IMG/VR virus record: IMGVR_UViG_2778261217_000005
DNA from: a virus
Lineage: Duplodnaviria > Heunggongvirae > Uroviricota > Caudoviricetes
DNA length: 21,722 bases
Strand: one strand, 5' to 3'
In this document: positions 1 through 21,722 of the stretch, one piece after another
How the letters are laid out: every line of letters starts with the position of its first letter
Numbering within the stretch: the stretch's first letter is position 1
Notes under the pieces: generated by a model
The model's database searches: none
The model's input: only the letters and a program-made list of their open reading frames with translations
Told to the model about the DNA's origin: nothing
Program-made: the position numbers and the translations under genes

Positions 1-1236
1 CTACGATAACCGCGCATTCAACATGGCTATCTGTTCGTCGTTCATGTCATCAATCCACATACCGTAAATTTCATACACCATCTGCGCAGTTTCATGCCCC
101 ATCTGGCTGGCTATAAATGCCGGGTTCGCTCCTGCCGTCAACAGCCAGCAGGCAAAAGTATGCCGCGTATGGTACGGATTACGACGGCGAATACCAGCAC
201 GTTTTACTGCTGCATTCCACCTTGCCCCCAAACTGCTTACCGAGTAATAAGGTTTTTGTTTTCCGTTACACACCCTGGGCATGAAAACAAAATGCAGTTT
301 TTGCTTTTCGGTTCTGCCGTACTCCCGATGATAAAAGGTGATTTCGCTTTTGCGATGATGCCCGGTCAGTTTGTATTGCTCCTTCAGTGCTTCAAGAGCA
401 GGCTGCAGTAGTGTTACTGTCCGGATCCCGGCATTTGTTTTTGGGGGACCGAACATATCAAGTATCGTCAGGTTTCTTCTGACATTCACTATTCCCTTTT
501 CGAGATCCACATCCTCCCACGCCAGAGCTGCCAGTTCCCCGTGACGAAGTCCTGAGTAAACGGCAAATTTCCACAAGTTCTGGCTCTGTCCTTTTTCACT
601 TTCCATTAATGCATTGAATTCTGTTTTAGATAACGGATCAGGCTTTATTCTGTTTCGCTGTAATTTTTTTACTCCTTCAAATGATTTGGTTGATATAAAT
701 CCCGACTGATACGCAAAACGCAACAGCGAACAGAGAAGGGCGATATAGTTATCAACTGTGCGCACGGTTCTTCCTTTTTTGTTGGATCTTGGATTATCCA
801 GGTAAAGCGTTTCTCCATGCAGCAGTTCATTCCGGTAGTTTAAGATATCGCTATAACGAATATGTGATATCGGGGTACTTTCACAAATTATTATTCTGAG
901 TGTTTTTAATTGTGATTTCGTTTTCTTCATTGTGTTTGTTGTTAACTCTGTCTCTTTAATTTTTGTCCAGATATCACAAAGCTCTCCGAACGTTTTTATG
1001 ACTCTCGTTGTCACCATTTTTGCCCCAGTGCTGGACTGGGGAAAACGTCTTAAATACTCAAATTCACCGGAGTTTATTTCATGAACTATCAGCGCTCTTA
1101 AATTTCCGGCCTTTTTAATATTACTGTTTGTAATCTCCCAGCCTTTTAATGTTTCCCGACATCGTTTTCCTCGAAACATGAACCAGATGCGAATGTATCT
1201 ACCTCTAATCTCGACACCTGTTGGTAATTTAGACAT
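1..1236 (-). CDS. intR: Tyrosine-recombinase prophage integrase (411 aa), stop codon at bases 1-3
   Basis: 411-aa ORF starting MSKLPTGVEIRGRYIRIWF; C-terminal RHTFA box and Tyr-containing tail typical of tyrosine recombinases; matches recalled Rac IntR. The xis stop lies 1 nt upstream of the int start. Confidence 0.9.
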   Translation of the reverse strand: MSKLPTGVEIRGRYIRIWFMFRGKRCRETLKGWEITNSNIKKAGNLRALIVHEINSGEFEYLRRFPQSSTGAKMVTTRVIKTFGELCDIWTKIKETELTTNTMKKTKSQLKTLRIIICESTPISHIRYSDILNYRNELLHGETLYLDNPRSNKKGRTVRTVDNYIALLCSLLRFAYQSGFISTKSFEGVKKLQRNRIKPDPLSKTEFNALMESEKGQSQNLWKFAVYSGLRHGELAALAWEDVDLEKGIVNVRRNLTILDMFGPPKTNAGIRTVTLLQPALEALKEQYKLTGHHRKSEITFYHREYGRTEKQKLHFVFMPRVCNGKQKPYYSVSSLGARWNAAVKRAGIRRRNPYHTRHTFACWLLTAGANPAFIASQMGHETAQMVYEIYGMWIDDMNDEQIAMLNARLS

Positions 1237-10057: not shown

Positions 10058-10810
10058 ATGGAGACTGTTTTTGACGCACTGAAAGCGATGGGAAAAGCCA
10101 CATCGGTAGAACTGGCAACGCGACTTGATATCAGTCGTGAAGAAGTGCTGAACGAGCTGTGGGAACTGAAAAAGGCTGGCTTCGTTGATAAAAGCGTATA
10201 CACCTGGCGTGTAGCTGATAACAACGTTCAGCAGGAGCAGGCAGAACTGCCGGAGGAAACCACCACGGCAACAGTCGCGAAAATTTCGGAGAGCGATTTA
10301 ACAGCGACGATTGAGCAACGTGGACCACAAACGGCGGATGAACTGGCTACGCTGTTCGGTACCACATCCCGCAAAGTGGCTTCAACGCTGGCAATGGCAA
10401 TCAGCAAAGGTCGTCTGATTCGCGTTAATCAGAACGGTAAATTTCGTTACTGCATGCCGGGCGGTAATTTACCAGCAGAGCCGAAAGTTGAATCGGTAGC
10501 GGAAACCGATGGTAAAGCCTTTCCTCAGCCAGCCGATGTTGCGTTACCAGTACAGGAAGCGGCAACACAGGAAGATATTAAAACAGAAACTGTGGCGGAC
10601 ATTGTGCAGTCGCTGCCATCGTTTACCGAAACGCGGGCGGATGACCTGATTTTACCATCGCTGCTCATGGCAAACCGTGAGCTGCGTCGGGCGAAAAATC
10701 ATGTCCAGAAGTGGGAGCGTGTCTGCGCCGCGCTGCGGGAGCTGAACAAGTACCGGGATATTGTTCGACAGATTGTCGATTCCCCCAGTCGTATTGTGTC
10801 GGAAAAGTGA
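10058..10810 (+). CDS. YdaW-like protein with N-terminal winged-helix-like region (250 aa from internal ATG)
   Basis: Start [30 protein letters not shown] after GGAGG SD; longer ORF would overlap ydaV. Confidence 0.6.
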
Positions 10811-10825
10811 TTGCCGGAGGCGCTT

Positions 10826-11080
10826 ATGGCAAAAGTTTTTACACAGGAAGAGCGTGAAAAAATTAAGGAGCAGGTTGTTGAGCTGGTACGCCAGAGTGGG
10901 CGCGAGACGTTAAGGCAACTGGAGGCCAAGACAGGTGCGACAAGATATCTGATGAGCATTCTTGCCAGAGAGTTGGTTGCCAGTGGCGATGTATACAACT
11001 CTGGCTATGGGTTATTTCCCTCTGAACAGGCTCGTAAGGACTGGAAAAACGCCCGCAAAAAATATCCAGGGCAAAGGTGA
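10826..11080 (+). CDS. Hypothetical small protein (84 aa)
   Basis: Start MAKVFTQEEREKIKEQ with GGAGG SD; function unknown. Confidence 0.45.
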   Translation: MAKVFTQEEREKIKEQVVELVRQSGRETLRQLEAKTGATRYLMSILARELVASGDVYNSGYGLFPSEQARKDWKNARKKYPGQR

Positions 11081-11926: not shown

Positions 11927-12595
11927 ATGACAGTTGCTGATTTCAAACGTCCTAAGTTGGAGCTCCCAAACGGGGCAAACAAACTACTATTACACTCTTG
12001 TTGTGCACCATGTTCCGGTGAAGTGATGGAGGCTCTTCAGGCCTCAGGAATCGACTACACCATCTTCTTCTATAATCCGAACATTCATCCTCAGAAAGAG
12101 TATTTGATTCGTAAGAATGAGAATATTCGATTTGCTGAACAACATGGTGTCCCGTTTATCGATGCTGATTACGACACTGACAACTGGTTTGAGCGAGCCA
12201 AAGGAATGGAATGGGAGCCAGAACGTGGGAGGCGTTGTACTATGTGTTTTGACATGCGTTTTGAACGGACGGCGCTGTACGCCGCTGAAAATGGTTTCAG
12301 TGTGATCAGCAGTTCACTGGGCATTTCACGCTGGAAAAATATGCAGCAGGTTAACGACAGCGGACGGCGAGCTGTCGCACATTATCCGGGCATGGTGTAC
12401 TGGGATTATAACTGGCGCAAGCAGGGAGGCTCGTCCCGCATGATTGAAATCAGCAAACGCGAACAATTCTATCAGCAGGAATATTGTGGTTGCGTGTATT
12501 CACTTCGCGATACCAATTTACACCGCAAATCCCAGGGACGCCCTCTTATCAAAATTGGTCAACTCCACTACGGTAAAGAAGAAGGGCAGGAATGA
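11927..12595 (+). CDS. queH: QueH-like epoxyqueuosine reductase (DUF208 family), 222 aa
   Basis: Motifs [19 protein letters not shown] and QEYCGCVYS match my recollection of the DUF208/QueH Cys pattern. Confidence 0.65.
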
Positions 12596-13206: not shown

Positions 13207-13545
13207 CTATTTTTTGGTGCTATAGACTTTTTCGCCTGAGAAGTCTGGAGCGACCCAAAAGTTAATATTAAACTGAGCATCATCGCTTAGTTCAACACGG
13301 TGCCAGTATTGTGGTGGGCTTGTTGCAAAAGAGCCAGCATTAATAACTACTTTTATCTCTGGTTCAGTAGTATTCTCATCAGCAAAACCATAATATGTTA
13401 CAGTGCCTTCCATTACGCACAACTGCCCAAAAACACCTGCTGCTGTATTATGATGTGTTAATAATGCTGAAGGTACGTTCTCTTTTGTGAAGAACGGAGT
13501 TGAGCGTTTGATTACCCAATCTTTAGGAATTCTCTTGTGTGTCAT
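13207..13545 (-). CDS. Small cupin-like protein (112 aa), possibly DUF1971/TehB-N-like
   Basis: ATG at 13545 preceded by AGGAGGTGG SD; family assignment is a weak recollection. Confidence 0.5.
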   Translation of the reverse strand: MTHKRIPKDWVIKRSTPFFTKENVPSALLTHHNTAAGVFGQLCVMEGTVTYYGFADENTTEPEIKVVINAGSFATSPPQYWHRVELSDDAQFNINFWVAPDFSGEKVYSTKK

Positions 13546-14416
13546 AACCACCTCCTATAAAACATGCATTATAAATGCACCTTTTGAGGAGTTATGTCAA
13601 GCTGTTATGAAACACATAATTGATATGTTGATTAGAGGAGAAGATAGAATAAATATGGTTGTTTTTCGTATAACTACTTGTTTTTCTTTTGGTTTATGCA
13701 TTCTGTGTGTTAGGAATAAGTTATTAAAGTTTAATCAAGAAATCTCGATGTATTCCACATAGATTACTGTTACTGAACCTTATTGTGTGCATTAGTTGTG
13801 TTCTGAAATTTCAGCTTAATTATTTATGATATATTTTTTAACGATAAATGTTTTCCCAGGTAAAAGACAGTTGGGAATAAGATAAGTAATATATCATTAA
13901 TCTTGATTATTTCCAGGGTGCCTTTACTGTGCATATAAATAAATCATATATGCATTAAATAATGTAAAGGCATCCTTTTAGATATATCTTATCAAATATT
14001 AATGACTTGAGTGGGAAACATGACTCCAGCAACTTATCATGTGGCTACTTTATAAAAATAATGCCCATATAAAACAACAAGCGAAAAGGATTACGGATAA
14101 AAAAGGAGCGAGATGTGCAAACTTGTTATTTTCCATGTTTAACCACCTTAAATAATTGATGATGACGGGATGATTGCATCTGTAATGCTTTTATTGAAAT
14201 GTTATGATAAAAAAGAACTTTTTCATAACATTAAAATGTAATTTAGCTAATCGTTTTTAATAATAAGTGTCGTATTTCTATCCTTGTACTAGCTATTTGA
14301 TATGTAGTGTTTGTTCATGCTATGTGGGGCTTTACACCATAGCCAGTTTATTTATACTTTATTCGTCAGCCTGAACAACTGGCATCTGCTGCACTGCGCC
14401 ATAGAGAGATTGAGAA

Positions 14417-16197: not shown

Positions 16198-16273
<76 letters not shown>

Positions 16274-16276
16274 TAT

Positions 16277-16351
<75 letters not shown>

Positions 16352-16741: not shown

Positions 16742-17129
16742 ATACCTGCATCAGACAAAAAAAGACACAAGCATCCAGGAATACTCGTGGGACAACGTCC
16801 TTTAGATAGCAATTTGCGAGAGGGTGAAAAGTAGCGCGGTCGTCGGATTAAGACCGCGGGACAAAGTCCATGAAGAATAATAAGTATTGGCCCCCTTCTG
16901 GGGATATGTTCATACTACTAAGCTTCAGAAGTGGTTTAAATCATCAAATTAACCTTAATTTTCGATAAGTCTTATTTCATTTCTTTGCGCCACATCTGGC
17001 GCGCATCAAATAACGCCACGCAAAGGGCATCTGCGGATGCCGGTGCTTTTGACGGGGTGTTTTTTACGGGCCGCTGGTGGCCATTTTTTGTTTCCGTTAC
17101 ACAGCGCCCGCATCTGCGAGGTGGGGGTT

Positions 17130-18440: not shown

Positions 18441-19898
18441 ATGAATACATCTCATGTAAGAGTTGTTACTCATATGTGTGGGTTCCTGGTTTGGCTCTAT
18501 AGTCTTTCAATGTTGCCACCAATGGTTGTAGCATTGTTTTATAAAGAAAAAAGCCTGTTCGTTTTCTTTATAACCTTCGTTATATTTTTTTGCATTGGTG
18601 GCGGAGCGTGGTATACAACTAAGAAATCTGGCATTCAATTACGTACCCGTGATGGGTTTATTATAATTGTAATGTTTTGGATTTTGTTTTCTGTTATTAG
18701 TGCATTCCCTTTATGGATTGACTCAGAACTTAATTTAACGTTCATTGATGCTCTTTTTGAAGGGGTTTCTGGAATAACAACAACAGGAGCAACTGTAATT
18801 GATGATGTTAGTTCATTACCTCGGGCATATTTGTACTATCGGTCACAGTTAAATTTTATAGGTGGTTTAGGAGTTATTGTTCTGGCGGTTGCTGTATTGC
18901 CATTATTGGGTATTGGTGGTGCAAAGCTTTATCAGTCAGAAATGCCGGGGCCATTTAAGGATGACAAACTCACTCCCCGCCTGGCCGATACGTCACGGAC
19001 ACTGTGGATAACTTATTCTTTATTAGGTATTGCTTGTATTGTCTGTTATAGACTTGCAGGAATGCCTTTGTTTGATGCTATTTGTCACGGGATTTCCACA
19101 GTTTCGCTTGGTGGTTTCTCAACTCATAGCGAGAGTATCGGATATTTTAATAACTATTTGGTTGAGCTGGTGGCTGGTTCTTTTTCCCTGCTATCGGCTT
19201 TCAACTTCACTCTTTGGTATATTGTTATTAGCAGGAAAACGATAAAACCTTTAATCAGAGATATTGAACTTCGTTTCTTTCTGTTAATAGCCTTAGTGGT
19301 GATCATTGTTACCTCTTTCCAGGTCTGGCATATAGGTATGTATGACTTGCATGGAAGTTTTATTCATTCGTTTTTTCTTGCCAGCTCCATGCTCACTGAT
19401 AATGGTTTAGCTACGCAAGATTATGCAAACTGGCCCACGCACACGATAGTGTTTTTGCTGTTGTCAAGTTTCTTTGGGGGATGTATAGGTTCAACTTGTG
19501 GTGGAATTAAGTCACTTCGATTTCTTATACTTTTCAAACAAAGCAAACACGAGATAAATCAGCTTTCTCATCCCAGAGCGTTGTTGAGTGTAAATGTAGG
19601 AGGGAAGATAGTTACAGATCGTGTAATGAGGTCTGTATGGAGTTTCTTTTTTCTTTATACTCTCTTCACGGTGTTTTTTATACTGGTGTTAAATGGTATG
19701 GGATATGATTTTCTTACATCATTTGCAACAGTGGCTGCATGTATTAATAATATGGGATTAGGTTTTGGGGCTACTGCATCGTCATTCGGAGTGCTTAATG
19801 ACATTGCAAAATATTTAATGTGCATAGCTATGATTCTTGGTCGCCTTGAAATTTATCCTGTTATTATATTGTTTTCAGGTTTTTTTTGGCGCTCCTAA
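18441..19898 (+). CDS. trkG: TrkG potassium uptake transporter (485 aa)
   Basis: MNTSHVRVVTHMCGFLVWLYSL...; multi-pass membrane protein with repeated GG selectivity-like motifs; start at ATG 18441 (track ORF begins at upstream TTG). Confidence 0.85.
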   Translation: MNTSHVRVVTHMCGFLVWLYSLSMLPPMVVALFYKEKSLFVFFITFVIFFCIGGGAWYTTKKSGIQLRTRDGFIIIVMFWILFSVISAFPLWIDSELNLTFIDALFEGVSGITTTGATVIDDVSSLPRAYLYYRSQLNFIGGLGVIVLAVAVLPLLGIGGAKLYQSEMPGPFKDDKLTPRLADTSRTLWITYSLLGIACIVCYRLAGMPLFDAICHGISTVSLGGFSTHSESIGYFNNYLVELVAGSFSLLSAFNFTLWYIVISRKTIKPLIRDIELRFFLLIALVVIIVTSFQVWHIGMYDLHGSFIHSFFLASSMLTDNGLATQDYANWPTHTIVFLLLSSFFGGCIGSTCGGIKSLRFLILFKQSKHEINQLSHPRALLSVNVGGKIVTDRVMRSVWSFFFLYTLFTVFFILVLNGMGYDFLTSFATVAACINNMGLGFGATASSFGVLNDIAKYLMCIAMILGRLEIYPVIILFSGFFWRS

Positions 19899-20035: not shown

Positions 20036-20830
20036 ATGAGCGAGAAATTAAAGATAGTCTATCGCCCATTACAAGAATTGTCACCGTATGCGCACAACGC
20101 CAGGACGCACAGTACTGAGCAGGTGGCACAACTGGTAGAAAGTATTAAGCAATTCGGCTGGACTAATCCGGTGCTGATTGACGAAAAGGGCGAAATTATT
20201 GCGGGTCACGGTCGTGTTATGGCGGCTGAAATGCTCAAAATGGATTCTGTTCCGGTCATTGTTCTGTCTGGCCTGACGGATGAGCAGAAAAAGGCGTACC
20301 GCTTGGCAGATAATCGCCTACCGATGAATGCTGGCTGGGATGAAGATCTGTTGCGGATGGAGCTGTCGGTCCTAATCAATGCTGATTTTGATGTCTCCCT
20401 GACAGGCTTCGGCCCGACAGAAATTGATGAACTGTTGACGGATGTTTTGCCCGGTACAGGAAATAAGGAGGAGCCGTATACGACGAAAATTGATACGCCT
20501 GTTTATGAGCCGTCGGGCGGTAAACCGGATATCAGTGAACTGTACGACGATACGAAAACTCAGGAGCTGATCAGCCGGATACGTTCGGCGTCCCTTGATC
20601 CTGATATTGAGAAATTCCTCCTGTGTGCGGCAGAACGTCACACAGTGTTTAATTTCAGCAGAATTGCGGACTATTACGCTCATGCCCCCGCTGAAATTCA
20701 GTGCCTTTTCGAGGAGTCGGCGCTGGTGATCATTGATTATCAGCAGGCTATTGAAAATGGATTTGTCCGAATGACGCAGCGCATGGTGGAGATCATGCAT
20801 GGCGGGGAGGAGGAGGAGGAATATGCGTGA
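20036..20830 (+). CDS. ParB-like nuclease (ParB/sulfiredoxin N-terminal domain) protein, YnaK-like, 264 aa
   Basis: N-terminal region with IIAGHGRVMAA motif typical of ParB/Srx fold; C-terminal acidic tail GGEEEEEYA. Confidence 0.75.
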   Translation: MSEKLKIVYRPLQELSPYAHNARTHSTEQVAQLVESIKQFGWTNPVLIDEKGEIIAGHGRVMAAEMLKMDSVPVIVLSGLTDEQKKAYRLADNRLPMNAGWDEDLLRMELSVLINADFDVSLTGFGPTEIDELLTDVLPGTGNKEEPYTTKIDTPVYEPSGGKPDISELYDDTKTQELISRIRSASLDPDIEKFLLCAAERHTVFNFSRIADYYAHAPAEIQCLFEESALVIIDYQQAIENGFVRMTQRMVEIMHGGEEEEEYA

Positions 20831-21524
20831 TGATTTTTGCGCCTTTATTCTGACTCACGGGCGACCGGACAAAGTTCTGACTTACCGGACGTTGCGTCGT
20901 GCTGGCTATACCGGGAAAATTTTTATCGTTGTTGATGATGAAGATAAGACACGGCATCAGTACATGGCTGAATTTGGTGAACAGGTGCTGGTATTTTCCA
21001 AAGCCGATATTGCCAGTCGTTTTGACGAAGCCGATAATTTTGGTGACCGCCGCTCAATTTTTTACGCCCGTAATGCCTGTTTCGACCTGGCAAAACTGGT
21101 CGGGTGTAAATACTTCATTCAGCTCGATGATGATTATCACGAGTTCCAGTTTCGGGTGGATCGCAACTATGACCAGGCCTATTTCCCGATAAGGAAACTG
21201 GATGCGATCCTTTCTGAAATGCTGGCGTATTACGAATCAATACCCGCGCTTTCCATCGCTATGTCGCAGGGCGGGGATTTTCTTGGTGACAATGGCGGCC
21301 ATGCTTCGTGGGTGAAACGCAAGGCAATGAACAGCTTTATCTGTTCGGTTGATCGACCGTTCTCATTCATGGGGCGCATTAACGAGGATGTGAATACGTA
21401 CACGAATCTCGGTCGCTGTGGTGAATTGTTTATGACGATCGGTGCTGTCCAGTTAGGGCAGAAACAGACGCAGAAAAACAGCGGCGGAATGACCGAGCTG
21501 TATCTGGATTCCGGAAGCCGCTGA
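20823..21524 (+). CDS. Hypothetical protein coupled to ParB-like gene (YdaY-like), 233 aa; two DxD-like acidic motifs
   Basis: ATG overlaps upstream stop (ATGCGTGA); SD GGAGGAGGAGGA; motifs VVDDED and QLDDDY; no recognisable methyltransferase motifs. Confidence 0.55.
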   Translation: MRDDFCAFILTHGRPDKVLTYRTLRRAGYTGKIFIVVDDEDKTRHQYMAEFGEQVLVFSKADIASRFDEADNFGDRRSIFYARNACFDLAKLVGCKYFIQLDDDYHEFQFRVDRNYDQAYFPIRKLDAILSEMLAYYESIPALSIAMSQGGDFLGDNGGHASWVKRKAMNSFICSVDRPFSFMGRINEDVNTYTNLGRCGELFMTIGAVQLGQKQTQKNSGGMTELYLDSGSR

Positions 21525-21722
21525 ACAGGCCAGCGCAGCAGCGAGGTCTGCATCCGCAGCGAAGACATCCGAAACGAACGCGAAAGCGTCGGAAACCCGT
21601 GCAGAATCCTCAAAAACGGCAGCGGCATCGTCCGCCAGTTCGGCGGCGTCATCGGCATCATCGGCGTCTGCTTCAAAAGATGAGGCGACCAGACAGGCGT
21701 CAGCAGCGAAGGGTAGCGCCAC
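21493..21722 (+). pseudogene. 5'-truncated internal fragment of a side-tail-fibre (Stf-like) gene, Ala/Ser/Thr-rich; runs off window end
   Basis: Frame +1 reads ...AEQASAAARSASAAKTSETNAKASETRAESSKTAAASSASSAASSASSASASKDEATRQASAAKGSA with no start codon after a stop at 21490-21492; composition typical of the Stf collar region. Confidence 0.5.

Follow-up and report, generated by a model that had tools for sequence, protein, structure and literature searches.

The DNA analysed here, a stretch of 21,722 bp that we call the window, matches the end of a draft E. coli contig (GCA_002541405.1) letter for letter and, judged by its collinearity with an annotated prophage, consists entirely of a Rac-like prophage of E. 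coli integrated beside ttcA. Positions 1 to 21516 align as a single piece, at 98.7% identity, with the int-to-glycosyltransferase part of the intact Rac-like prophage AR436 (NZ_CP029111.1, ~747,200-793,600), and the left arm beside ttcA aligns likewise in AR436 and 152 other genomes. The left arm has the collinear Rac-type order intR-xis-ralR-recT-recE-kilR ... ydaS/T/U/V ... lysis-trkG-ParB-like, which is also that of Rac in K-12 (Table 1). Following the annotation of AR436, the part up to 21516 encodes only functions for integration, recombination, immunity, replication, antitermination and lysis, together with trkG, the ParB-like protein and the glycosyltransferase; this collinearity bears out the view, put forward in a first-pass annotation of the window, that no terminase, portal, capsid or tail genes lie ahead of the junction described below. 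The source contig stops 297 bp past the window and 495 bp past the junction, within a conserved tail-fibre segment, and the right arm of the source locus (the rest of stf, tfa, pin and the right attachment site) is outside it.

Table 1. Features of the window that bear on the deletion junction
Feature	Position	Strand	Basis
intR integrase, left prophage end adjoining ttcA	1..1236	-	411-aa ORF; collinear with annotated intR beside ttcA in AR436
trkG potassium-transporter moron	18441..19898	+	ORF list; AR436 annotation by collinearity; PF02386
ParB/Srx N-terminal-domain protein, 264 aa, intact	20036..20830	+	Pfam PF02195, E = 9e-7
Truncated TAGT-family glycosyltransferase ORF, 233 aa	20823..21524	+	PF20691; codons 1-231 authentic, then Ser-Arg-stop from tail-fibre DNA
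TGA stop in the tail-fibre frame, inside glycosyltransferase-derived DNA	21490..21492	+	Sequence; fibre frame without upstream continuation
8-bp palindrome TTCCGGAA, ending exactly at the breakpoint	21509..21516		Read from the sequence
Retained part of the 16-bp deletion hotspot	21511..21516		Full spot is window 21511-21526, AR436-composite 35512-35527
Deletion junction, GAA microhomology common to both parents	21514..21516		BLAST pieces overlap there; parental sequences side by side
Internal side-tail-fibre (Stf/StfR) fragment, codons 343-411 (AR436 StfR numbering)	21514..21722	+	StfR match; runs off the window end

A truncated glycosyltransferase gene and a tail-fibre fragment

The AR436 orthologue of the ParB-like protein matches PHROG 620, 'ParB-like partition protein' (E = 3e-89). 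The 233-aa ORF that follows had been described as a ParB-partner gene with its stop at 21522-21524. It does run from an ATG to a TGA at that place, adjoins the ParB-like gene and forms the left partner of the junction, but its identity is that of a truncated TAGT-family glycosyltransferase (231 of 310 codons). Its match to the TAGT profile (TET/JBP-associated glycosyltransferase, PF20691; 'GREB1-related protein') is strong, at 122 bits against a Pfam gathering threshold of 27.5, and takes in positions 4-205 of the 205-position profile; the invariant DDD motif lies at residues 102-104. Intact orthologues have 310 aa (WP_001204033.1/P0003). The window ORF departs from the family sequence after G231 and is therefore a truncated remnant, without the conserved C-terminal 79 residues. 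The lost part holds 13 family-invariant residues, all within residues 232-279 (T232, Y233, K235, F237, Y238, M241, P244, S245, R258, H260, H261, W265 and K279), and the protein that remains is probably inactive. A further difference from other TAGT proteins concerns the gene neighbourhood: the annotation of the intact relative lists no TET/JBP dioxygenase gene, and the partner is the ParB/Srx-domain protein. The PHROG label of the glycosyltransferase, 'beta-glucosyl-HMC-alpha-glucosyltransferase', is an annotation only, and the substrate that it names is putative.

The frame with codons from 21493 is open to the window end, encodes PSCIWIPEAAEQASAAARSASAAKTSETNAKASE... and contains no ATG, GTG or TTG inside the window. 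Together with the 297-bp contig extension, the fragment matches residues 343-496 of AR436 StfR (1117 aa) with 149 of 154 residues identical (E = 6e-86), which establishes that the Ala/Ser/Thr-rich stretch noticed in the first-pass annotation is genuine mid side-tail-fibre sequence and not a chance composition. Shaft repeats rich in Ala, Ser and Thr are followed, in the same extended sequence, by the conserved 'KKGIVQLSSATNSTSE' segment of Stf proteins, and of 5,426 complete E. coli genomes, about 3,500 have this DNA within a gene annotated as tail fibre. The piece had rightly been called internal and start-less: its homology begins at codon 343, the N-terminal domain of prophage tail fibres (PF08400) with its start codon is absent, and a TGA precedes it in frame. 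The fibre remnant is probably untranslated.

The junction is the scar of a large deletion

Left of 21516, the window is collinear with the intact glycosyltransferase gene in hundreds of genomes, and this match ends exactly at 21516; from 21514 onward the DNA matches stf, and the two BLAST pieces overlap by 3 bp, GAA. Codon 231 (of 310) of the glycosyltransferase is thereby joined to codon 343 (of ~1117) of the side-tail-fibre gene, out of frame, so that the glycosyltransferase ORF ends two codons later. The breakpoint had previously been put at about 21493, which is where the fibre frame opens; the alignment against an intact relative that had been proposed for placing it gives 21514-21516, where the matches on both sides end. 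The flanks correspond to positions 35517 and 57451 of the AR436 composite, which supplies both parental sequences, and they lie there co-oriented and 21,936 bp apart, as is to be expected if the junction arose by deletion, the origin originally assigned to it. The few shared bases and the lack of a long repeat or of a mobile-element end at the junction are characteristic of illegitimate joining.

In contrast to the window, AR436 has the full 310-aa glycosyltransferase and, between the junction points, 21.9 kb that encode packaging, head and tail functions. The lost interval comprises the last 79 glycosyltransferase codons, a 69-aa ORF, terS, terL, the portal, head, head-tail and tail-tube genes, the YdaY, tape-measure, minor-tail, J and lom genes, and the first 342 codons (the 5' third) of stf. 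Since the whole packaging, head and tail set is deleted, the prophage cannot make virions, and the suggestion that the structural region is missing and the prophage defective proved correct, as the AR436 interval holds every virion gene. These alignments show that an illegitimate, microhomology-mediated deletion of ~21.9 kb in a Rac-like prophage at ttcA left the junction as its scar. Such a loss of virion genes is, by itself, ordinary, and it explains the defectiveness.

The identical junction is present in three assemblies, one from NCBI and two Logan assemblies of different SRA runs (runs of the source lineage: SRR3988057 and SRR28381949). The junction 40-mer was not found in GTDB species representatives and the junction occurs in 0 of 5,426 complete E. 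coli genomes; two complete-genome records that cover the junction query do so in two separated pieces each, with different junctions. The exact junction of the window was thus seen only in its own lineage (three samples).

The left breakpoint is a recurrent deletion hotspot

The recurrence of the left breakpoint is new relative to the first-pass annotation, which did not foresee a hotspot. At least 19 other, independent deletions in Rac-like prophages of other strains, each with a distinct junction, have their left end within the same 16 bp. Their right ends lie 0.5-24 kb rightward, anywhere between terS and tfa or else in a different structural module, and the microhomologies are 0-9 bp long, mostly AA or GAA. 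Some right ends (AR436-composite 36036/7, 45854/5, 56850/1 and 58105/7) recur with different left partners and are candidate secondary hotspots. These deletions (LR-03, 13TMH22, LWY6, GCA_001891835.1 and others) share with the window the context trkG - ParB-like - glycosyltransferase 1-231..235, the short microhomology and the rightward loss of virion genes; trkG is the first gene of the block that all hotspot deletions keep. They differ from it in their right ends (terS, minor head, tail tube, gpI, gpJ, five stf positions, tfa and the baseplate module of another phage) and in that several are in-frame fusions, such as the glycosyltransferase-Stf fusion of LR-03, whereas that of the window is out of frame. 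In LR-03 and in L016/L017 the neighbourhood reads junction - rest of stf - tfa - pin - ynaE - uspF - ompN.

Three samples support this clustering. A protein search with the truncated protein as query, ranked by query coverage and hence under-sampling breakpoints upstream of codon 231, and in which only in-frame fusions form separate clusters, gave 18 non-intact clusters (99% identical), 14 of which diverge at ...LYLDS(G)(TYV); breakpoints past codon 235 are fully detectable in this search, yet rare (4 of 18 clusters). Among 129 metagenome and IMG/VR loci, an unbiased sample drawn with a DNA anchor, 12 loci representing seven junction types break inside 15 bp, against only four junction types in the next 423 bp (binomial P = 1.6e-8). 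Finally, 954 complete genomes have the region, 869 of them intact across it, and an estimated ~63 have the left side only; these genome-level frequencies are estimates, from ~85 complete genomes with partial matches, part of them listed. Of five such left-only matches sampled, three stop at the hotspot. The left side was kept at the hotspot in 8 of 80 loci and the right side in 0 of 80 (Fisher P = 0.0065), no event keeping the right side being found among the loci examined. The shared left ends, the scattered right ends and the lack of events that keep the right side together define a directional deletion hotspot. We consider it very likely that the junction is a deletion scar whose left end belongs to this shared 16-bp hotspot, with a lesion-type cause as a proposal.

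Several candidates were set aside while the events were counted. The L019 terS junction ('DS/A') is the L015 junction with one SNP. An apparent second hotspot immediately after '...SCVKI' (P0001, 409 members) was traced to a frameshift, the prophage being intact apart from it, and the 'breaks' near AR436-composite 34810 are length variants of a GAG repeat at the overlap of the ParB-like and glycosyltransferase genes. Many further 'junctions', at 36146, 36305 and 36827, were flagged by script but left out as non-deletions, being mosaic terS alleles or indels.

Possible causes of the hotspot

The sequence at the spot is TTCCGGAACCTACGTTA, with the break of the window falling between TTCCGGAA and CCTACGTTA and with dyads TTCCGGAA/AACCTACGTT, and it falls within the glycosyltransferase motif that is most strongly conserved at the protein level. 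Left ends fall into two modes, near 35515-17 and near 35524-27, about one helical turn (~9 bp) apart, and an IS1 end is also found at the spot, abutting position 35515. There is no Chi at the spot; the only two Chi sites lie at 17073 and 19166, the nearest correctly oriented one being 2.3 kb off. None of 12 matching phage records ends at the spot, as could have hinted at cos or pac, and literature searches on Rac with pac site, on Rac with ynaK/trkG deletions and on TAGT with ParB gave nothing on it. A pseudo-site for the serine invertase Pin was rejected, as the left ends spread over 16 bp with no fixed 2-bp core and the microhomologies (0-9 bp) vary in sequence; the AACC-TA-CGTT at the spot does, on our assumption, resemble invertase half-sites, and a search for real inversion sites in EC6563 yielded nothing usable. 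The 9-bp target duplication of IS1 was also discarded as the origin of the two modes: IS1 abuts 35515 and not 35526, and no fusion retains IS1.

Our leading guess is a site-specific DNA lesion, a nick or a cut, that would be made at the spot by the phage DNA-processing machinery. Candidate cutters would be the headful terminase (Terminase_6N/6C TerL with Terminase_2 TerS), which is encoded 430 bp downstream of the spot and might cleave it in pac fashion, or the ParB-like protein with its nuclease domain, whose gene lies immediately upstream. In K-12, the order of the Rac genes follows rising coordinates at 1.41-1.43 Mb, on the clockwise replichore. A replication fork passing through Rac from left to right would leave, at the lesion, a one-ended break with the left flank as its 3' end, and this end could then, rarely, be joined by terminal microhomology to DNA further right, with loss of the virion module. 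We hold this cause only tentatively. A conserved coding motif is an unusual place for a packaging site, and the reuse of right ends with different left partners is not explained. In addition, by analogy with lambda cos, RecBCD should have access to the end that terminase does not hold; with Chi 2.3 kb off, such a terminase-free end would be predicted to give scattered left ends rather than a fixed one.

The main alternative is a replication-fork barrier that requires no nuclease, in which a bound protein (the ParB-like protein or TerS) or an odd DNA conformation at the dyads would stall the rightward fork, and the nascent leading-strand 3' end would switch template to a downstream microhomology. 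Deletions by fork arrest and template switching have reportedly been described at Ter sites by Bierne, Ehrlich and Michel. A barrier of this kind would account for the fixed left end, the variable right ends and the exclusively rightward direction of the deletions, for microhomology that sits right at the 3' terminus of the flank that is kept, and for the two left-end modes one helical turn apart; the IS1 end suggests a structurally distinctive site, and read-through from trkG, which has its own expression in lysogens, could supply the ParB-like protein. Against it, the spot folds no better than its shuffles (z = -0.21), without a predicted hairpin or cruciform, and has no repeats around it beyond chance, long ones included; no binding protein for the spot is known, no Ter-like sequence was recognised, and the present data fit the nick or cut equally. 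We therefore regard fork arrest without a nuclease as an unlikely, though serious, candidate.

Other readings of the junction

That the join, although genuine, is something other than a simple deletion, having arisen by duplication, by translocation, by exchange with the stf of another lambdoid prophage, or by a second deletion that trimmed an older junction of the LR-03 type, seems to us quite improbable. The best match of the fibre DNA (99.0%) is to the stf of another prophage, a defective one at the bio locus, and also begins at about codon 343; identity to Rac stf alleles is only 91.7-95.2% (91.7% to AR436 stfR), so that an origin from Rac's own stf is not provable; moreover, the right side of the window locus is beyond the source contig, and two pairs of junctions appear nested (EC6563, 35850 joined to 56850, with LR-03, 35526 to 56851; L021, 35524 to 58105, with L011, 35517 to 58107). 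However, the two partners keep the strand and the order that they have in intact Rac-like prophages, exactly what a simple deletion would produce, and a deletion reaching a prophage hundreds of kb off would take essential genes with it. Besides, stf alleles are mosaic, and best-hit identity consequently says little on location, while differences of 2-5% from LR-03 in the flanks on either side of the junction argue against recent descent from it.

Even less probable is that the simple deletion favoured here was a one-off random event, and that the clustering reflects ascertainment or selection for residues 1-231. The protein search does favour in-frame fusions that keep the query region and has the upstream bias stated above. 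The DNA-anchor sample, however, is independent of frame and clustering and gives the same cluster, as do the sampled complete genomes, and downstream breakpoints were rare although detectable. Nor would selection give base-pair precision, because invariant residues are lost whichever codon from 231 to 310 is hit. An assembly chimera, made by a short-read assembler jumping into repeated tail-fibre sequence common to several prophages, where the draft contig ends, can practically be dismissed, since three assemblies from different runs and assemblers have the same junction (both Logan contigs reaching 34 bp beyond it), the shared 3 bp are far under any assembler overlap or k-mer length, and junctions of the same class occur in the closed genomes LR-03, 13TMH22 and LWY6.

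Implications

Models of prophage decay usually invoke random deletion, with selection acting as a filter. At least 20 independent deletions, that of the window included, with a common 16-bp left end and a single direction, imply a specific molecular event. It may be, and we give this slightly less than an even chance, that Rac-like prophages have a built-in directional lesion site (a pac-type cut, a ParB-like nick or a fork barrier) that time and again causes the whole virion module to be lost and leaves recET, immunity, lysis and trkG in place, and that would thus be a mechanistic driver of prophage 'domestication' beyond random decay. If terminase or the ParB-like protein does cleave the integrated prophage, DNA processing in situ would be tied to the heritable inactivation of prophages, and there would be a base-level handle on the uncharacterised ParB-like/glycosyltransferase module that adjoins terminase genes in many phages; breakpoint censuses over public assemblies could then map packaging or nicking sites to the base. 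It should also be noted, for annotation, that in-frame database ORFs fusing the glycosyltransferase to a fibre, tube or terminase protein are deletion scars and not new multidomain proteins.

Comparison with known systems

The cryptic Rac of K-12 (intR ... trkG-ynaK-ydaY-ynaA-lomR-stfR-tfaR-pinR) has the same integration site as the window prophage and the same left-arm order (intR, xis, ralR, recT, recE, kilR, ydaS/T/U/V, lysis genes, trkG, ParB-like gene), and it is likewise defective through internal deletions, with 2-bp microhomologies. In contrast to the window, it lost virion genes through joins of ynaK codon ~80 to ydaY (34290 to 45855) and of a tape-measure remnant to lom (47613 to 55964), and its stfR is intact. 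Its glycosyltransferase gene is wholly gone, and K-12 Rac is therefore without the hotspot site.

Terminase cuts cos or pac in integrated prophages, as in lambda doc particles and in lateral transduction; such in situ packaging mobilises DNA, and we know of no case in which it leaves heritable deletions. The hotspot differs from these systems, and from deletions at Ter sites, in lying in a conserved coding motif rather than in an intergenic control region, and arrest, nicking or pac cleavage at the spot is putative. It resembles them in having one fixed and one variable endpoint, microhomology joins and a single direction.

The glycosyltransferase-fibre junction and the deleted interval

The first-pass annotation had proposed that a deletion joins the partner gene of a ParB-like gene to an internal tail-fibre fragment, and its reading of the frames holds: the 233-aa ORF ends at the expected TGA (see the table), and a startless second frame from about 21493, which opens past the TGA at 21490-21492 and reads PSCIWIPEAAEQASAAARSASAAKTSETNAKASETRAESSKTAAASSASS..., continues through the window end without ATG, GTG or TTG. 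The tail-fibre origin of this frame was also confirmed: right of 21516 it corresponds to AR436 StfR codons 343-496, with 149/154 residues identical, a count that includes the contig extension beyond the window. The best DNA match of the fibre part, in strain AH21, likewise begins near codon 343, in a fibre gene of 1024 aa. A continuous AR436 reference was assembled for junction mapping, and on this intact relative the breakpoint could be located: the left flank extends as far as reference position 35517, and 57451 is the first position of the right flank, in the same orientation, with a 3-bp overlap (GAA) and 21,936 bp missing in between. The missing interval holds the C-terminus of the glycosyltransferase; a 69-aa ORF, lying between the ParB/TAGT pair and terS, that resembles an internal part of a small terminase (phrog_309); terS (Terminase_2) and terL (Terminase_6N/6C); genes for a DUF4055 portal, a Mu-F-like minor head protein and a P22-type capsid protein; head-tail genes, tail tube, YdaY, tape measure, minor tail proteins, J and Lom; and 342 codons of stf. 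The structural region is thus deleted, as had been suspected, and the prophage is defective.

Three contigs encode a protein exactly matching the 233-aa product. NCBI contig NMDM01000009.1 (GCA_002541405.1; 160 kb) is identical to the window's final 10,900 bases, continues for 297 bp and then ends, and the Logan assemblies SRR3988057 and SRR28381949, which derive from separate SRA runs, show no difference from the window and both stop at window position 21550, 34 bp beyond the junction. The contigs end shortly after the junction because the tail-fibre sequence is a repeat, found in about 3,500 of the 5,426 complete E. coli genomes and often in multiple copies; as the parents of the join have just 3 bp in common, it is impossible that an assembler created it. 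The exact junction was absent from these 5,426 genomes and from the GTDB species representatives. Two long antisense ORFs cross the junction and the Ala/Ser/Thr-rich region; the source assembly annotates one of them as a gene, but both most likely result from the repetitive, GC-rich codon pattern and are artefacts. The junction of the window is itself an ordinary microhomology-mediated internal deletion of a cryptic lambdoid prophage, a well-known class.

Up to 21516, the window aligns in a single piece (98.7%) to the ttcA-adjoining prophages of 153 complete genomes. This segment is annotated in AR436 with intR, xisR, ralR, recT, recE and kilR; repressor-type regulators and ydaT/U/V; QueH, Q-type antiterminator-region genes and two tRNAs; holin, lysozyme and Rz; and trkG, a ParB/Srx-domain gene and a 310-aa "hypothetical protein". 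Accessory genes sit between the replication and antitermination regions of the window prophage, and both Chi sites are oriented for RecBCD arriving from the right, i.e., from a break at the hotspot.

Features of the window and of related loci (L, fetched loci; P, glycosyltransferase protein clusters)
Feature	Coordinates	Strand	Remarks
QueH-type epoxyqueuosine reductase homologue (PF02677)	window 11927-12595	+	
TehB-like/DUF1971 gene	window 13207-13551	-	
tRNA-Thr(TGT)/tRNA-Gly(TCC) pair	window 16198-16351	+	
Two Chi sites (GCTGGTGG)	window 17073-17080 and 19166-19173	+	~0.4 expected
ParB/Srx-domain and TAGT-family genes	window 20036-21524; AR436 (L003) 34037-35943		8-bp overlap
GAG/GGA repeat GGAGGAGGAGGAGGA	window 20806-20820		at the overlap of the pair
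233-aa ORF	window 20823-21524		ATG 20823; TGA 21522-21524
Antisense ORF, 148 aa	window 21230-21676	-	
Antisense ORF, 89 aa	window 21453-21722	-	
Antisense ORF annotated as gene	source assembly (L004) 10631-10900		
Hotspot	window 21511-21526; reference 35512-35527		
IS1A end at the glycosyltransferase gene	L026 2798-3551		reference 35515; E. coli 2018-11-1BCC, NZ_AP027902.1
Chimeric ORFs	L002 5993-9653 (LR-03)		also P0002, P0006-P0008, P0010, P0012, P0014, P0015, P0017-P0021
P0001 frameshift	L210 2630-3400		256 aa; cluster of 409
Two serial deletions	L015 3001-4730		Logan SRR33768447
Reused end	reference 56850/1		left partners 35850 (EC6563), 35526 (LR-03)
Reused end	reference 45854/5		left partners 34290 (K-12), 35852 (L123)
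Reused end	reference 58105/7		left partners 35524, 35517
Reused end	reference 36036/7		right end in L015, left end in L153

Deletions recurrently start within a 16-bp spot in the glycosyltransferase gene

With the truncated protein as query, 21 E. coli clusters of homologues were obtained (93-100% identity, full query coverage), of which 3 are intact, 4 diverge at about residues 250, 250, 270 and 300, and 14 diverge directly after ...GGMTELYLDS(G)(TYV). All 14 stay in frame beyond this point, and each enters a virion protein of its own: terS, minor head, tail tube (2 positions), gpI, Stf (3 positions), Tfa and one unassigned partner. When the contigs of these clusters and 3 complete genomes were mapped on the AR436 reference, the left ends fell at 35512, 35515 (three times, once abutting an IS1 end), 35517 (five times), 35520, 35524, 35526 and 35527 (twice), i.e., over 16 bp with two modes separated by about one helical turn, and the right ends at 36036, 39929, 45148, 45254, 51836, 54760, 56851, 57451, 57995, 58105, 58107, 59268 and 59905. 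Microhomology was 0-9 bp, in most cases AA or GAA. All mapped loci carry trkG and the ParB-like gene upstream, and the normal right arm (pinR, ynaE, uspF, ompN) lies downstream wherever the contig is long enough.

Protein clustering is biased to in-frame events, and a second survey was therefore made with a DNA anchor immediately left of the spot. In this survey, 12 of 129 metagenome and IMG/VR loci break at 35517-35527 (7 junction types, including 5 new ones), and the next 423 bp contain just 4 true junction types in the same loci (binomial P = 1.6e-8). In one of the junction types (locus L089), the spot is joined to the baseplate region of another structural module, and the recurring element is therefore the left site, not the partner. 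Among complete genomes, the region is present in 954, intact across in 869 and represented by its left side alone in about 63; 3 of 5 sampled left-only matches end at the spot (35515, 35517 and 35527). In the mirror search, with an anchor immediately right of the spot, 80/80 loci were collinear leftward through it, which implies that deletions from this site go rightward only (breaks rightward in 8/80 loci versus leftward in 0/80, P = 0.0065). The recurrence of the left end is not ordinary, and we found no mention of it in a non-exhaustive search of the literature.

Possible causes of the recurrent left end

The spot, which reads TTCCGGAA, CCTACGTTA and AAAG in succession, falls within the motif that is most conserved in the glycosyltransferase; no Chi site, hairpin or repeat was found there. 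Terminase genes of the headful class are located 430 bp downstream, the gene immediately upstream encodes a ParB/Srx nuclease-type domain, and chromosomal replication forks traverse Rac from left to right, given its position and established replichore geometry. We infer, as our preferred model, that a site-specific nick or cut would arise at the spot, that a rightward fork would turn this lesion into a one-ended break, and that the retained 3' end would occasionally be joined to downstream DNA through terminal microhomology. The spread and the two modes fit cleavage or arrest at a distance set by a bound protein, and a fork barrier alone, followed by template switching and without any nick or cut, would account for the data about equally well. 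Headful-class terminases cleave at or near pac, frequently at several positions. Three points speak against a cut by the terminase: the site lies within a coding region, an unprotected end should, by analogy with lambda cos, undergo RecBCD degradation, and it would be left unexplained why certain right ends (36036/7, 45854/5, 56850/1 and 58105/7) recur with different left partners. The 16-bp spread and the two modes speak against a recombinase whose crossover position is fixed; a Pin-invertase origin is rejected as the left ends are not at one crossover, and an IS1 origin because the sole IS1 at the spot abuts 35515 rather than 35526 and none of the fusions has kept IS1. The latter, an IS1A end with a truncated mcrB-like ATPase gene and then mcrC behind it, indicates that an IS1-associated large rearrangement landed on the hotspot too.

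The interrupted gene and its fusion products

The 233-aa ORF is a truncated form of the AR436 310-aa protein and matches Pfam PF20691 (TAGT, TET-associated glycosyltransferase) with 122 bits. It diverges from the intact protein past Gly231, and 13 residues within 232-279 are invariant in an alignment of 14 homologues (identity down to 60%); the truncation therefore takes out conserved core sequence, and its product is probably inactive. The gene is also being inactivated by point changes in apparently complete prophages: in P0001, the commonest non-intact variant, the frame shifts after "...SCVKI", although terS, terL and portal are otherwise retained in the prophage. The ParB/Srx-TAGT pair lies directly upstream of the terminase genes and has no TET/JBP partner, and the same ParB-like domain is fused to DNA methyltransferases in phrog_498; this context suggests a predicted packaging-linked DNA-modification module. 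The GAG/GGA repeat, which encodes the Glu-rich C-terminus of the ParB-like protein and contains the ribosome-binding region of the glycosyltransferase, differs in length between loci, and these variants appeared as "breaks" at reference ~34810-34813 in the collinearity script.

Many hotspot deletions are in frame and generate long chimeric ORFs, in which the glycosyltransferase N-terminus is followed by Stf, Tfa, tail tube, gpI, minor head protein or TerS. They are listed in protein databases as 330-407-aa "TAGT" proteins plus Phage_fiber, Caudo_TAP and Phage_tube_2 Pfam domains, and PGAP labels the one of strain LR-03 a frameshifted tail fibre. It should be noted that these fusions are deletion scars and are not to be taken for new domain architectures.

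Comparison with other Rac derivatives

Several right-hand ends are reused with different left partners (L002, L008, L009, L011, L015, L021, L123 and L153), and most of these sites have G-N-A-A directly before the break, behind a G-rich run (GGTGGCAA, GGCGGCAA, GCTGGCAA, GCTGGCGAA); they may reflect either nested deletions or secondary hotspots. Locus L015 carries two serial deletions, one from the hotspot to about codon 30 of terS and one from mid-terS to just before lom, which shows stepwise erosion within a single lineage. In strain EC6563, 35850 is joined to 56850, and in LR-03 35526 is joined to 56851, with an in-frame glycosyltransferase-fibre fusion. The closest analogues of the window's junction are those of the Rac prophage of K-12, which has also lost the structural genes, but at other positions (34290 to 45855 and 47613 to 55964).
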